Virus genome (UHGV): UHGV-0204260
From: a virus
DNA length: 45,765 bases
Reading direction: 5' to 3' (one strand)
Each line of letters opens with the position of its first letter. Positions within the stretch are counted from its first letter, which is position 1. Position numbers and translations under genes: made by a program. The notes beneath the pieces are model-generated. The model was given only the letters and a program-made list of their open reading frames with translations. It was not told the DNA's origin and did not search any database. This document shows, one piece after another, positions 29,207-33,011 of the stretch.

Positions 29207-29346
29207 ACGAACAAACAAAAGCTGACCTGATTTTCTACACCGATTTGTATGTCGATGCGGGTTACGACTACGAAGAAGCGGAGCGCATGGCGAAAGATTT
29301 GCTTCGCGTTATTGGTGTGATTTTTGATGAGGATAAGGTGATATGA
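29203..29346 (+). CDS. Hypothetical protein (47 aa)
   Basis: ATGA overlaps at both ends couple it to the genes upstream and downstream. Not in the track (<60 aa). Confidence 0.4.
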   Translation: MNEQTKADLIFYTDLYVDAGYDYEEAERMAKDLLRVIGVIFDEDKVI

Positions 29347-29690
29347 AAAATTATGAAGAGATGAGCGATTTTGAAATTAACAAGCGAGTATTTAAAGTGA
29401 TAGTTGGGGCAAAGCCATTAGGTTATCCACACAACGCAGATGGGCGGTCTGTTGGCAATGAAGCAAATGGTAATTATCTATGGTACGACTATTGCAATAA
29501 TCCAGAAGATGCTGAGCCTATTATTATTGAAAACAGAATCGGCACTATTCCAGCACCAGATAATGGATTGTGGAAAGCCGCGCACAGAAAGATTGGTAAT
29601 GATGATACGCCATACCACTTTACTCAAGATAAAAACCCACTACGCGCCGCCATGATTGTCTTCCTTAAAATGAATGAGGATAAGTTATGA
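29343..29690 (+). CDS. NinX-like protein (DUF2591-like)
   Basis: 115 aa with an N-terminus MKNYEEMSDFEINKRV typical of NinX/DUF2591 phage proteins. Confidence 0.6.
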   Translation: MKNYEEMSDFEINKRVFKVIVGAKPLGYPHNADGRSVGNEANGNYLWYDYCNNPEDAEPIIIENRIGTIPAPDNGLWKAAHRKIGNDDTPYHFTQDKNPLRAAMIVFLKMNEDKL

Positions 29691-29890
29691 GCCAGTGGAT
29701 TAAGTGCAGTGAGCGGATGCCTGAAGAAGGCAAGCCAGTTTTAGTTGTCAGCAGTATTGGTGGTGCGGTACAGAACAATGTGTACGAGTGGGATGGTAGA
29801 ACTTGGTGTGATTTCAGGGCAGACTACAACGAACTCAGTATGGATGTTTTTACCCACTGGATGCCGCTACCAGAGCCACCACAAGAATAA
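29687..29890 (+). CDS. DUF551-like protein
   Basis: 67 aa. MSQWIKCSERMPEEGKPVLV resembles the DUF551 N-terminus common in phage accessory regions. Confidence 0.55.
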   Translation: MSQWIKCSERMPEEGKPVLVVSSIGGAVQNNVYEWDGRTWCDFRADYNELSMDVFTHWMPLPEPPQE

Positions 29891-29892
29891 AA

Positions 29893-29920
29893 CAAAGCCC
29901 CTTTCGGGGCTTTTTCTTTA
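29893..29920. terminator. Bidirectional rho-independent terminator (AAAGCCCC-tttc-GGGGCTTT + T-run)
   Basis: Hairpin with U-runs on both strands, between moron island 29000-29890 and the 3' end of the major tail gene. Confidence 0.65.
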
Positions 29921-30637
29921 TCCGGTTACAGTGCAAGCTGTACTGATAATAATTTCCGGGTCAGTAGATGAATCAGTTACCGTGACGGTATACACGCCAG
30001 CGGTAGGGCTTGACAGCGTTGCGCCTGATTCACTGCCAACAACTACGCCATCTTTACGCCACACGTAGGTGTAAGGAGAGACGCCGCCTTCAACAGCAAC
30101 AGTTAATGGGCTGCCAGCAGTTCCAGTTGGTTGCAAGTCAGTAGTGAACTTCAGAGGCTCAAGGCTTTCAACGGTAACGCTGTCAGAATCGTAAACCTTG
30201 AACTCAAGGCTACCAGTCACGATGTCGTTTGTTCCGCCTTCGTAGCTGATGCTGGTGATGTTGCAGTAAGCGGTAACGATGGTGGCACCAGTCACCTGAC
30301 GCACCCACAAGGAAGGCTGACGACGCGATTTCAGTTCAGTGGCGTAAATCTCAACCAGACGATGGAATCCAAACTCATCGCTTGGGTCATTCTTGCGGAT
30401 TTCCACCTCTGCGCTGATGGTCATATCAGAGCTGGTAACGAGAGTGGAAACAAATCCGCCAGCGGTATCCGCTTCCGACGTGGTGGTCTGTGGCGAGTAG
30501 TCAACACCTTTACTGGTGGTTGAGCCTAAATACTTCCAGTCTCCTGCCTCAGGAACTGCGTCACCGCACCCTTCAGCAAGGAACAGTCGGGTCATGCGAC
30601 CGACCAGAACGCCTTTATCATTTGCACAAATAGCCAT
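29918..30637 (-). CDS. Major tail protein with C-terminal Ig-like (Big_2-type) domain
   Basis: 239 aa in the lambda V position. The C-terminal ~80 aa are Thr/Ser/Val-rich with a GVYTVTVTD Ig-like pattern. Confidence 0.75.
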   Translation of the reverse strand: MAICANDKGVLVGRMTRLFLAEGCGDAVPEAGDWKYLGSTTSKGVDYSPQTTTSEADTAGGFVSTLVTSSDMTISAEVEIRKNDPSDEFGFHRLVEIYATELKSRRQPSLWVRQVTGATIVTAYCNITSISYEGGTNDIVTGSLEFKVYDSDSVTVESLEPLKFTTDLQPTGTAGSPLTVAVEGGVSPYTYVWRKDGVVVGSESGATLSSPTAGVYTVTVTDSSTDPEIIISTACTVTG

Positions 30638-30688
30638 TTCGATCTCCGAATTGTGTTAGCTGCTAACGTGGTGATTATATCACAGGTG

Positions 30689-30717
30689 TTGACAGTGATT
30701 ATTTTGTGGTGTAGATT
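30689..30717 (+). promoter_or_regulatory. Promoter TTGACA (30689-30694), 17 nt spacer, TAGATT (30712-30717)
   Basis: Consensus hexamers, with a GGTGTAGATTG motif copy. Confidence 0.55.
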
Positions 30718-30723
30718 GTATTT

Positions 30724-31200
30724 CAGATGGTTTTCGTGAGCTACTTTGCGGACTTTTTAGAAACTGACCACAAAGATAAATGCAAACGATGATGTTGTTC
30801 TGATGGCGGCGTAATAGCCTGTAAGTCAGCAAGGTCTTCCGATTCCTTGTAAGCAAATTCAGCGCAGTGGCTCGCTGTGATTAATAATGTGCACACAACA
30901 GGTAAGAGCATTGGGTAATGTCAGCCTTGGTTCGAAGTCGAAAGACATGCGGTAATACCCAGCCCAAGTTCCAGTGCTCTTTCCGTTGTGGTAATGCGGC
31001 TATGCGCACGCGGCAAGGTAAAGAAACACTCCATTTGTTTTGGGATTGCCTGCTGGATTTACCGACCAGCAATCTGGAGGCACCAGAACCACAACACTTA
31101 ATATCCAGCGTTATCGCAAGCATATGTAGGGGTATGTATGGGTTACGGGGCTGGATGTTAAGAAAGCACGCTGGCAATGCTTAAACCAGCACTAAATCAA
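30724..31200 (+). ncRNA. Candidate structured non-coding RNA / long tRNA-operon leader (~480 nt)
   Basis: Lies between a strong promoter and two tRNAs. It has only implausible ORFs and several GC hairpins (CCAGC/GCTGG stems, CAAGG/CCTTG, CAGCG/CGCTG, GTC-GAAA-GAC tetraloop). Confidence 0.3.
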
Positions 31201-31201
31201 C

Positions 31202-31289
31202 GGATAGTTGGCTGAGAGGCCGAAAGCAGTCGGTTGCTAACCGATAAACCGGAAACGGTTCACAGGTTCGAATCCTGTACTATCCGCCA
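31202..31289 (+). tRNA. tRNA-Ser (anticodon GCU), type II with long variable arm
   Basis: Folded by hand: acceptor GGATAGT/ACTATCC, anticodon loop TTGCTAA, variable arm ACCG-gaaa-CGGT, T-loop GGTTCGAATCC, 3' GCCA. 88 nt. Confidence 0.85.
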
Positions 31290-31295
31290 CATTAA

Positions 31296-31371
31296 ACACC
31301 ATTAGCTCAACGGATAGAGCAGTAGCCTTCTAAGCTATTGGTTGCAGGTTCGAGTCCTGCATGGTGTGCCA
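31296..31371 (+). tRNA. tRNA-Arg (anticodon UCU)
   Basis: Folded by hand: acceptor ACACCAT/ATGGTGT, D-arm GCTC-AACGGATA-GAGC, anticodon loop CTTCTAA, T-loop GGTTCGAGTCC, 3' GCCA. 76 nt. Confidence 0.9.
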
Positions 31372-31386
31372 GTTCGGGAAATTCCG

Positions 31387-31566
31387 ATGACAATCCAGCA
31401 AATCCATAATGATTACTGGCGAATCGCTGACAACCACAACAGGCGCATTGCTTCTATATCAATGATTAACAAATGGTACGTAGTTAGTCTTGCCAATGGA
31501 GGTTATGCGGGAAGGTTCGAGTCATTTGATGATGCGATTGGCTCAATCAAAAGCAAGGATAATTAA
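31387..31566 (+). CDS. Hypothetical protein (59 aa) downstream of the tRNAs
   Basis: ATG at 31387 follows GGGAA 7 nt after the tRNA-Arg end. It is the in-frame part of track ORF 31342-31566. Confidence 0.5.
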   Translation: MTIQQIHNDYWRIADNHNRRIASISMINKWYVVSLANGGYAGRFESFDDAIGSIKSKDN

Positions 31567-31595
31567 AAGCCGCTTCATGCGGCTTTATTTATTTC
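31566..31595. terminator. Bidirectional rho-independent terminator (AAGCCGC-ttcat-GCGGCTT + T-run)
   Basis: Hairpin plus TTATTTATTT. It ends the tRNA island and abuts the 3' end of minus gene 31589-31963. Confidence 0.65.
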
Positions 31596-31963
31596 ACGAC
31601 CCGCAAAAGCAACTCATGCACAGGACGTTTTTCTTCCGTCAGCATTGGCCTGCCGAGCGGAGCCTGCAACTGAATGTAGTTTACGCATGAATCAATCGGA
31701 TGAGTTTTGATGTATTCTATAATCTCCAGCGCCTTAGCGTCAACGTCGGCTACGTTATACTGCCCATGTTTGCCAACAACATACAGAGAGAAATAGAAAT
31801 CACCGCCGAGTCCATCCATAACCTGCGTGCCGCCATTGGATTGCAGGACAATAAATTGCTCATTGCCATCTCCGGTATCATTCCAGAACTGCAACTGCGA
31901 AGTCCAGCCATCATACAATCCGGCATCCTGAAGATATGCATCAACCAGTTCAAGCATATTCAC
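31589..31963 (-). CDS. Tail terminator / tail completion protein (gpU-like position)
   Basis: 124 aa ORF between the gp10-like gene and the major tail gene. Assignment by synteny. Confidence 0.5.
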   Translation of the reverse strand: MNMLELVDAYLQDAGLYDGWTSQLQFWNDTGDGNEQFIVLQSNGGTQVMDGLGGDFYFSLYVVGKHGQYNVADVDAKALEIIEYIKTHPIDSCVNYIQLQAPLGRPMLTEEKRPVHELLLRVVK

Positions 31964-32373: not shown

Positions 32374-32522
32374 AATCTATCACCCAAGTATAACATTGAA
32401 TAGTCACGTAGGCGTGGAACCCGAAACGACACACAAGCAACAATGAATTTAACGCCCTTGTCAGTATGGTTTGTTGCAACCATGTTCCACCTGACAGGGG
32501 CGTTACCCTTTTGGAGGTGAGT

Positions 32523-33011
32523 ATGCTGACCGTTGAGAGACTTAAGCAGAAATTAATTTATAATAGTGAGACTGGTGTTTTTACGTGGAAGAAAGGAAGA
32601 GGTCCAGTAAAAGCTGGTTCCATGGCAGGAAGACCGCATAACCAAGGATATATCAGAATAGCTATTGATTACAAAGACTATCTCGCCCATAGATTGGCTT
32701 GGTTATATGTATACGGAGAGTGGCCGGAAAATGAAATTGACCACATCAATGGCATCAAGACTGACAACAGGATTATAAACTTAAGGCAAGCAACAATGGA
32801 AGAGAATTGCAGAAATGTTAAGGTTCATAAAAGAAATAGACTTGGCATAAAAGGCGTCTCAGAGAGAATTGATTGCAAGCTAAGATTTGTTGCTAACATA
32901 AGGATTAATGGATTAGTGACTTGCCTTGGTCATTACGAAACGGCAGAAGAAGCTAAGGCCGCATATGACAAAGCGGCGCTTGAGCATTTTGGTGAGTTTT
33001 TCAGATCGTAA
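32523..33011 (+). CDS. HNH homing endonuclease (free-standing, opposite strand)
   Basis: HNH motif IDHINGIKTDNRIINLRQ plus an AP2-like C-terminal region (NUMOD4-like N-terminus). Probable start is the ATG at 32523 behind GGAGGTGAG (track ORF 32466-33011). Confidence 0.8.
   Translation: MLTVERLKQKLIYNSETGVFTWKKGRGPVKAGSMAGRPHNQGYIRIAIDYKDYLAHRLAWLYVYGEWPENEIDHINGIKTDNRIINLRQATMEENCRNVKVHKRNRLGIKGVSERIDCKLRFVANIRINGLVTCLGHYETAEEAKAAYDKAALEHFGEFFRS

Follow-up and report, generated by a model that had tools for sequence, protein, structure and literature searches.

A mosaic non-coding RNA locus of enterobacterial phages contains a module resembling the message domain of tmRNA

The window examined here is a stretch of viral DNA of 45,765 nt (UHGV virus genome UHGV-0204260), the genome of a siphovirus of about 46 kb whose nearest relative is Shigella phage Sf11 (genus Cedarrivervirus). 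Within it, some 480 nt (positions 30724-31200) lie between a promoter and two tRNA genes. Comparison with related loci shows this region to be, by prediction, an operon of non-coding RNA modules that runs from promoter to terminator and in which the modules are exchanged independently of one another; the tRNAs and a 59-aa open reading frame (ORF) at its end would be passengers. The first module, referred to here as the tag module, looks like the message domain of transfer-messenger RNA (tmRNA) in its local architecture, as far as this can be judged from the sequence. We tentatively read it as a phage-encoded tagging template that works with a non-canonical or host-supplied partner.

Results

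The tag reading frame

The tag frame (Table 1) has neither a start codon nor a ribosome-binding site, and an in-frame TAG is found eight codons upstream. It begins at a resume-type GCA codon, which directly follows GAUAAAU, and it continues to a stop without any start signal, as the frame of a tmRNA does. The tag encoded by E. coli ssrA is ANDENYALAA. This frame was overlooked in an earlier note on the same DNA.

A search with an 18-mer at the resume codon turned up at least 120 viral contigs in IMG/VR. The copies on these contigs give at least 14 variants of the peptide, all with ten codons and a stop, among them ANDDVVLMAA, ANEEMYLAVA, ANDEQFLAVA, ANDDLMLMAA, ANDDQFLAVA, ANDDLMLAAA and ANDNTFLAVA, and every variant fits the pattern A-N-D/E-x-x-hydrophobic-L-x-A/V-A. 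At the nucleotide level there are 25 distinct tags, and the length of ten codons plus stop is kept in 25 out of 25. Single-base differences between them are synonymous in nine cases and non-synonymous in five, where about 3:11 would be expected (synonymous fraction 0.23), though these counts are few, are not phylogenetically independent and are partly confounded by the helix P5 described below. Read in the other two frames, the same differences give ratios of 2:12 and 1:13. Where the amino acid does change, the replacement is conservative (A/V, M/V, M/I and D/E), the last alanine is written with all four of its codons, leucine with CUG and UUG, and either UAA or UAG serves as the stop. This pattern of substitution shows a frame that is apparently under selection at the level of the peptide.

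As a baseline, the 18-mer was counted in one genome per species for 185,579 species, where it occurs 75 times. Nine of these occurrences are genuine tmRNAs, three are enterobacterial copies of the module and about 60 are chance matches inside genes, none of which reads as a ten-codon tag.

Helices around the tag

The structure proposed for the tag module places the stop codons of the tag in the loop of a P5-like hairpin, which is followed by a second hairpin (P6) and an H-type pseudoknot (PK2), while a further pseudoknot (PK1) is proposed ahead of the frame. In an alignment of 57 distinct homologues, base pairs were counted for this structure, which we had defined ourselves, and for controls in which the pairing partners were slid. 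Across the 57 copies 89.9% of the cells are paired compared with 34-41% in the slid controls, 15 pairs change on both sides (3-8 in the controls) and so do 142 individual cells (22 or fewer in the controls). In P5, changes on both sides are seen in all four outer pairs and in three of the five inner ones, with distributions such as GC 35 / AU 21. P6 is paired in 98.6% of cells, with pair types of CG 32 / UA 25, GC 36 / AU 20 and AU 45 / GC 11. The closing pair of stem 1 of PK2 is CG in 39 copies, GC in 10 and UA in 8, and each of the four pairs of its stem 2 has changes on both sides; the loop GAUUAAUAA hardly varies. Longer variants of stem 2 of PK2, UCCCUGA/UCAGGGA and GGCGGGAG/CUCCCGCC, were recognised by eye. 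A stop codon in a hairpin with pseudoknots on either side is characteristic of tmRNA, and the covariation of P5, P6 and PK2 agrees with this layout, with which the invariant PK1 is compatible.

PK1 ends 6 nt ahead of the resume codon, and its pairing is possible in 84-94% of cells. As its stems never vary, PK1 stays a proposal. A second, unrelated version of PK1 is present in some prophages.

The earlier note had described the region as rich in hairpins and had asked for covariation in relatives as a check. The helices downstream of the tag do covary among the 57 copies, and the CAAGG/CCTTG stem that the note had picked out is real and corresponds to P6. Its CAGCG/CGCTG stem finds no support in that register; the pairing that the comparison supports is CGCAG (30863-67) with CTGTG (30875-79), which is a stem of the pseudoknot PK2. 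Hairpins are present in the region, but thermodynamically they do not go beyond chance, the minimum free energy of 30724-31200 being only 1.44 sd below that of shuffled sequences (z = -1.44). Since the folding energy is unremarkable, the case for structure rests on covariation in relatives.

A mosaic of exchangeable modules

The window was compared with its relatives and with 29 IMG/VR contigs that were retrieved with a 19-mer flanking the promoter. Promoter and terminator are constant among the relatives, and the content between them is assembled from exchangeable pieces. The single RNA of about 480 nt envisaged in the earlier note is, on this comparison, instead a mosaic of four predicted modules (tag, H, M and B), at least four pieces being independently exchangeable. 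The first slot holds either the 167-nt tag module or an unrelated module of 95 nt. The last slot holds tRNA-Ser with tRNA-Arg, tRNA-Met, tRNA-Ile or no tRNA. About ten related loci consist of RNA modules and the terminator with no tRNA at all, so that the RNA modules are the constant content of the locus and the tRNAs are optional. In Klebsiella virus KpV2811 (L223, ~1015-1050) the end of M runs straight into the 3' remnant of a truncated tRNA-Met (TTCGAATCCTGTCGCGGGAACCA), which appears to be a deletion scar showing gain and loss of tRNAs at the locus.

Module H, which follows the tag module in the window, is an irregular helix of roughly 17-20 bp set between modules. Its parts are, in order, CACAAC (30894-99), a bulged A, GGTAAGAGCATT (30901-12), a loop of 60 nt (30913-72), AGTGCTCTTTCC (30973-84) and GTTGTGG (30985-91). 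We found about 145 distinct H hairpins in 106 loci, and their loops, of 20-113 nt, fall into about 68 unrelated families, a minority of which contain a T arm and a D-arm-like hairpin. The GTC-GAAA-GAC tetraloop of the earlier note is present in the window but falls inside this hypervariable loop. In the stem of H one position is usually a mismatch and another is usually of the wobble type (U.G 59, C.A 23, C-G 19, U-A 17). A strand of H adjoins the tag module in at least 83 of 92 distinct contexts: on both sides in 38, downstream only in 26 and upstream only in 19. Where H is downstream only, the promoter pattern lies directly upstream of the tag module in 26 of 26 contexts, as it does in the window. 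The two one-sided arrangements, H-tag and tag-H, are circular permutations of each other. H has also been considered as a group I intron, an integron attC site or a self-cleaving ribozyme; no model matched and the motifs do not fit.

A module bounded by GUUGUG and CACAAC, as M is in the window, comes after H in at least 36 contexts. M is predicted to form a multi-hairpin fold under an acceptor-like closing stem of 8-9 bp, GTTGTGG(T)/(A)CCACAAC, beneath which at least six alternative, unrelated interiors occur. A comparison of 17 homologues gave 28 pairs, of which four change on both sides. The GUUGUGG strand has two alternative partners, the upstream CACAAC, which extends H, and the downstream CACAAC, which closes M. 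A P1-like plasmid keeps both pairings through compensating changes (GUUGCGG with CGUAAC and with CCGCAAC). In variant c of M a canonical T arm occurs together with a D-arm-like hairpin, and ARAGORN reports no tRNA in this variant even with introns allowed; variant a, the one in the window, matches no tRNA or tmRNA model. Neither H nor M is seen as a cloverleaf by tRNA models, and their likeness to tRNA appears to be one of topology only, in the terminal 8-9-bp stem and, in variant c, the T- and D-like arms. In a 158.6-kb viral contig (L084, ~560-1290 of a 2-kb context) at least four T-arm mini-helices surround the tag module. ARAGORN calls zero tRNAs among them, and they would thus form an array of non-canonical tRNA-like elements.

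Module B lies directly upstream of the tRNAs or, in relatives, of the terminator. It is present in every Escherichia and Salmonella relative and absent from the Klebsiella relatives and the prophages, and it varies too slightly for a test of covariation. A pseudoknot of AAGCA/TGCTT and GCTGG/CCAGC at 31164-90 is possible. All three stems with CCAGC/GCTGG arms listed in the earlier note were recovered, one at ~31052-31070 within M and two within B, at 31105/31150 as part of the 13-bp helix and at 31170/31186.

Further recurrent modules are found 150-400 nt past the tag in lambdoid prophage contigs (L037, L039, L042 and L077), as well as in L003 and L224. Examples from these late-leader arrays are a module containing GGGTAACAACGGGCATRTYGCCTYAGTAAATCCC and a GCTCC-ACGAAAC-GGAGC hairpin just ahead of an H.

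The missing tRNA-like half

In a scan by E-value, tmRNA models were the only non-tRNA families of Rfam to approach the region. The tmRNA_permuted model (RF04321) reached 29.5 bits compared with a gathering cut-off of 47, and RF01849 reached 15.7 compared with 50. The match is driven by AAAGAUAAAU together with GCA AAC GAU GAU GUU GUU CUG AUG GCG GCG UAA UAG. The Rfam scan suggested in the earlier note had the sub-threshold tmRNA_permuted as its single non-tRNA lead. Over the whole window, no curated large or self-cleaving RNA reached its gathering cut-off, and within 30500-31700 GOLLD, ROOL, the large RNA and the ribozyme families remained without a match when E-values up to 10 were admitted. 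An unrelated viral contig (L040, IMGVR_UViG_3300018418_001574; 37% G+C) carries a genuine permuted tmRNA in two pieces, with its own promoter and the tag ANDNIAYEEFALAA, which served as the positive control for ARAGORN; the 'resume consensus' that the program reports there, gataaatgcaaacgat, is the same string as in the window.

A number of observations weigh against the reading of the tag module as a tagging template. Neither the window nor any enterophage copy of the tag module yields a tmRNA in ARAGORN, Rfam gives no tmRNA or tRNA match within 30724-31200, and a scan of the whole window finds no T arm with CCA outside the two tRNAs. Nor is there, next to a T arm, any sequence that could pair with the transcript's 5' end. 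The tRNA-like domain of a tmRNA, with its G3:U70 acceptor stem, T arm and 3' CCA, is therefore lacking. The alanine identity pair G3:U70 is absent, M having U3:A70 and H, read as a tRNA-like fold, having its wobble reversed. It is the ends of their terminal stems that link H and M to the tag module, and not the place from which the connecting helix of tmRNA emerges, and sequence homology with host ssrA is absent (z < 1). In addition, the invariance of the PK1 stems means that covariation neither supports nor refutes PK1, the synonymous excess carries the limits already given, and about ten relatives have the unrelated 95-nt module in place of the tag module, which is thus dispensable for the locus. 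Having no tRNA-like domain, the element is not a standard tmRNA but corresponds to the message half only.

Several candidates for the missing half were tried and rejected. A hidden tRNA-like domain was not revealed by the tmRNA and intron modes of ARAGORN, by the E-value scans of Rfam or by the scan for a T arm with CCA. An alanine identity can be read in H in the G3:U70 orientation only if the loop is excised and the molecule is made to begin with the 3' strand, and even so the wobble is the third pair in only some copies. A helix enclosing the tag module, in which a 3' strand upstream of it would pair with a 5' strand downstream, is not consistent with the copy in a ~157-kb phage (L084), which has no matching downstream strand. 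ARAGORN does call a 'tmRNA' with the tag AKAVRLRKCSFRCGECAG in phage vB_EcoS_swi2 (L032, 212-586 from the promoter); this is a false positive, which borrows the 3' half of the adjacent tRNA-Met, uses a different frame and ignores the real tag, ANEEMYLAVA, upstream.

Proposed origins fared no better. A recent capture of host ssrA was rejected, local alignments of each module with E. coli ssrA being no better than shuffles (z < 1), and a likeness of module B to the PK4 region of ssrA is not significant. Descent from a genuine tmRNA lineage was also rejected: among the nine real tmRNAs that contain the resume 18-mer, none (0/9) shares P6 or PK2.

The locus and its transcription unit

The earlier note had described a consensus promoter, a stretch with no credible ORF, and then tRNA-Ser, tRNA-Arg, a 59-aa ORF and a terminator, all of which we find in that order (Table 1). 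The promoter is of the sigma-70 type, matches 10 of the 12 consensus positions and is kept in related loci; a promoter scan by itself is not significant (4 sites compared with 1.9 +/- 1.6 in shuffles). Transcription would start at about 30724. The terminator is likewise conserved in all related loci.

Table 1. Coordinates of the features in and around the RNA locus, in window positions
Feature	Position	Strand	Details
Major tail protein gene	29918-30637	-	flanks the plus-strand unit
Promoter, sigma-70 type	30689-30717	+	-35 TTGACA 30689-94, 17-nt spacer, -10 TAGATT 30712-17
Tag module (tmRNA-like message domain)	30726-30892	+	PK1 (proposed), tag frame, P5, P6, PK2
PK1 (proposed)	30729-30775	+	stem 1 30729-33/30761-65; stem 2 30744-51/30768-75
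Tag frame	30782-30817	+	GCA AAC GAT GAT GTT GTT CTG ATG GCG GCG, then TAA TAG; ANDDVVLMAA and two stops
P5-like hairpin	30800-30829	+	stop codons in loop; outer stem CTGA 30800-03 with TCAG 30826-29
P6 hairpin	30830-30849	+	CAAGG/CCTTG; loop UCUUCCGAYU in most copies
PK2 (H-type pseudoknot)	30863-30892	+	stem 1 30863-67/30875-79; stem 2 30870-73/30889-92
Hairpin H	30894-30991	+	irregular stem, hypervariable loop
Module M (variant a)	30985-31095	+	multi-hairpin fold; 8-bp acceptor-like closing stem GTTGTGGT with ACCACAAC
Module B	31097-31198	+	13-bp helix 31097-109/31150-62
tRNA-Ser (GCU)	31202-31289	+	57.5 bits
tRNA-Arg (UCU)	31296-31371	+	70.2 bits
59-aa ORF	31387-31566	+	phrog_35112, E = 2.6e-40
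Intrinsic terminator	31566-31586	+	closes the unit
phrog_782 gene	31589-31963	-	flanks the plus-strand unit

Within the ~480 nt the longest ORFs are one of 88 aa on the plus strand (30918-31184) and one of 98 aa on the minus strand (30881-31177). Neither has a match in PHROG or Pfam, and both span module boundaries that are swapped between relatives. The copies of module M that underlie both ORFs are 105-112 nt long, with length differences that are not multiples of three. The conserved frame and homologues expected of a protein-coding gene are thus not found in this stretch. The 59-aa ORF, on the other hand, is a real gene with no assigned function; it is missing from many related loci and is an optional passenger. 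The description of the region as non-coding, structured, accessory and co-transcribed with tRNAs, in a plus-strand island within the minus-strand tail module, agrees with our findings.

A second small plus-strand island lies upstream of the major tail gene (29343-29890) and encodes two small proteins, so that the tail module holds two accessory insertions. The gene for one of the two carries the annotation DUF551 in relatives, where it stands beside a superinfection-exclusion gene. About 900 nt downstream of the RNA locus, within the minus-strand structural module, the window also has an HNH homing-endonuclease ORF on the plus strand (32466-33011; Pfam HNH_3, E = 1.4e-17, with a weak AP2 match). 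On a prophage contig (L142) the RNA array is followed by an ORF whose N-terminal sequence is, by eye, like that of the HNH ORF. These observations hint that the mobility of the RNA cassettes is linked to homing endonucleases.

Distribution and annotation

The tag module is present in 506 phage records, among which the organism name starts with Salmonella in 192, Escherichia in 112, Klebsiella in 107, Shigella in 26 and Erwinia in 19. Among the carriers are siphoviruses of 46 kb, P1, P7 and phages of ~70 kb, ~88 kb and ~157 kb. Of 5426 complete E. coli genomes, 137 have the module in prophages, and in none of these is it annotated; the whole 477 nt matches 1249 E. coli genomes, a figure that includes short matches to other modules. 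In the two lambdoid prophages that were examined the array sits in the late leader, between the gene for the Q antiterminator and the holin gene. A further 56 plasmid records carry the tag module; these are mostly of ~96-112 kb and predicted to be non-mobilizable, and we take them to be phage-plasmids.

In P1 (L224, MH445380.1 32753-35230; locus ~1185-1450) the tag module comes directly after the dmt terminator. Its tag, GCA AAC GAT GAT CTG ATG ATG GTA GCG GCC TAA, reads ANDDLMMVAA, and the module is followed by H, tRNA-Asn, tRNA-Thr and further H- and M-like elements. The P1 copy is unannotated, and the tag module is almost never annotated as RNA. Some records instead have a 'hypothetical protein' coding sequence over the locus, as in Bas77 (L145, 22317-22937), Bas81 (L003, 2084-2915), NX263 (L002, 2197-2310) and L221 (898-1102). 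The strands and frames of these GenBank calls vary among records, and they are probably artefacts of annotation. Full-text literature searches found no description of the tag element, and in the literature examined no tmRNA was found listed or described for phages of Enterobacterales.

Discussion

The tag module shares with tmRNA (RF00023, RF01849-51, RF04321) a GCA resume codon, a ten-codon degron of the ANDxxxLxAA type and a stop in a hairpin loop, with pseudoknots before (PK1, proposed) and after (PK2) the frame. As with permuted tmRNA genes, it occurs joined to its partner helix in two orders, H-tag and tag-H. Unlike tmRNA, it has no tRNA-like domain, it is below every Rfam cut-off, it has no homology to host ssrA, and there is one downstream pseudoknot where tmRNA has three.

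If the tag module is indeed a tagging template, stalled ribosomes would resume translation on it during lytic growth, and unfinished proteins would gain a phage-specified, ssrA-like degron, ANDDVVLMAA in the case of the window. As there is no alanine-accepting tRNA-like domain in the window, delivery to the ribosome would need a non-canonical partner. Speculatively, this could be the acceptor-stem-like H and M, after processing and addition of CCA, or host factors such as SmpB. A broader form of the proposal is that hundreds of enterobacterial phages carry a stand-alone template for trans-translation, a message domain without a tRNA-like domain of its own that is loaded by a novel route, and this we consider possible, if somewhat improbable. 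Loading would then occur through a non-alanine tRNA-like partner (H or M) or through parts of host SmpB/tmRNA, and the carriers would be P1, lambdoid prophages, the 46-kb siphoviruses and phages with the sizes of the Vi01-like, N4-like and Felix O1-like groups.

Pieces of ribosome-rescue RNA are known from other phages. The phage tmRNAs that have been listed are those of mycobacteriophages and of Bacillus phage G, and a form consisting of the tRNA-like domain only is found in DS6A; surveys of tmRNA have required the positions of the CCA tail for acceptance (PMC4131195, PMC11915505). The element of the window resembles those of DS6A, the cluster C mycobacteriophages and Bacillus phage G in being a phage-borne piece of this kind. 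DS6A keeps the tRNA half without a tag, whereas the window element keeps the tag half without the tRNA half, and the hosts here are Enterobacterales.

The half-molecule of DS6A also bears on a different explanation, in which the tag module is a decoy or modulator of the host's ribosome rescue. It would mimic the message domain and pseudoknots of tmRNA without being translated, and would damp or redirect host trans-translation by titrating SmpB, ribosomal protein S1, RNase R or the stalled ribosome. The absence of a tRNA-like domain fits such a decoy, the context of the resume codon and the loops are strongly conserved at the RNA level, and the reciprocal half-molecule in mycobacteriophage DS6A has a counterpart in a similar molecule that inhibits tmRNA (PMC4131195, PMC11915505). 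A decoy needs no open frame, however, and yet the length, the stop and the amino-acid pattern are kept over 25 variants with an excess of synonymous changes, while the nucleotides in the middle of the tag diverge freely and there is no sequence similarity to host ssrA. On balance a decoy seems unlikely. The same conservation of the frame tells against the idea that the tag is a captured relic of a tmRNA in a scaffold for processing or recombination, in which tRNA-like or RNase III/RNase P-type hairpins of a leader would release the tRNAs or stabilise downstream mRNA and the conserved stems would act as homology linkers for the shuffling of cassettes. A relic would not be expected to keep ten codons, a stop and an ssrA-like peptide across very different groups of phages, and the covariation of the helices around the tag points to selection on the module itself. 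Much else at the locus would fit such a scaffold: its extreme mosaicism, with the junctions CACAAC, GGTAAGAGCATT, AGTGCTCTTTCC and GTTGTGG flanking dozens of unrelated inserts, the irregular helix of H between modules, the T arms and D-arm-like hairpins in some H loops and M variants, and the position of the lambdoid prophage array in the late leader between the Q and holin genes. Among the roles suggested in the earlier note, a processed leader is accordingly a live rival, 'tRNA-like' fits the topology of H and M, and for a ribozyme-like element no family matched. As an account of the whole we regard the scaffold as rather doubtful; for H and M it can coexist with a tagging template.

The remaining explanations address the array more than the tag. 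GOLLD, ROOL and the stable RNAs C and D of phage T4 are structured non-coding phage RNAs that are co-transcribed beside tRNA genes. The present locus likewise places structured phage RNA next to tRNA genes, and it could be imagined that the array folds or multimerises into a higher-order particle associated with the tRNAs, being large, ornate and phage-borne, with variable and conserved parts, and reaching at least 600 nt in prophages and P1. Unlike those RNAs, though, it has no Rfam match, to GOLLD, ROOL or any large RNA family, and its locus is a modular mosaic with a tag frame in one module. No module is universal, their independent exchange argues against one co-folding unit and the folding energy of the whole region is unremarkable, all of which makes an architectural RNA very unlikely. 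Less probable again is a sponge for GcvB. CACAACA is the consensus target of the R1 seed of GcvB, and the prophage anti-sRNA (small RNA) AgvB, which mimics such targets, is encoded in a 'moron' site downstream of PR' in lambdoid prophages (PMC4104026). The repeated motif is found in the window as CACAACA at 30894-30900 and as CCACAACA at 31089-31096, and also in L033, L036 and L224, and the array shares with AgvB and AsxR both this motif and the insertion site downstream of PR' (PMC4104026). AgvB and AsxR are, however, separate Hfq-binding sRNAs of 51-60 nt with their own promoter and terminator and with neither a tag frame nor pseudoknots (PMC4104026). The motifs in the array are predicted to pair internally with GUUGUGG, and a sponge would explain neither the tag frame nor the pseudoknots. 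GUUGUGG, the internal partner, itself resembles the R1 seed of GcvB. The match to GcvB could be coincidence or a second, sponge-like function. That the stretch encodes small proteins, as several GenBank records have it, is essentially excluded: the 88-aa and 98-aa ORFs do exist, and 'hypothetical protein' features cover the homologous region in Bas77, Bas81, NX263 and others, but the two ORFs have no PHROG or Pfam match, they run across variable junctions with non-triplet indels, and the annotated ORFs differ in strand and frame between records.

Whatever its function, the analysis corrects the annotation of a locus that in nearly all records is blank or carries spurious 'hypothetical protein' calls. 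It also defines the new RNA modules H, M and B; with their conserved stems and hypervariable inserts, these resemble a system for shuffling RNA cassettes. On the current view, trans-translation requires a single RNA, or two base-paired RNAs, linking an alanine-charged tRNA mimic with a short message. A stand-alone message half points to a new route for delivering a tagging template or to a new viral manipulation of ribosome rescue. Either of these two leading readings would be new biology and could be tested in phage P1 and in the BASEL phages Bas77-81. If the tag module does act as a stand-alone template, proteins rescued in infected cells would receive degrons chosen by the phage.

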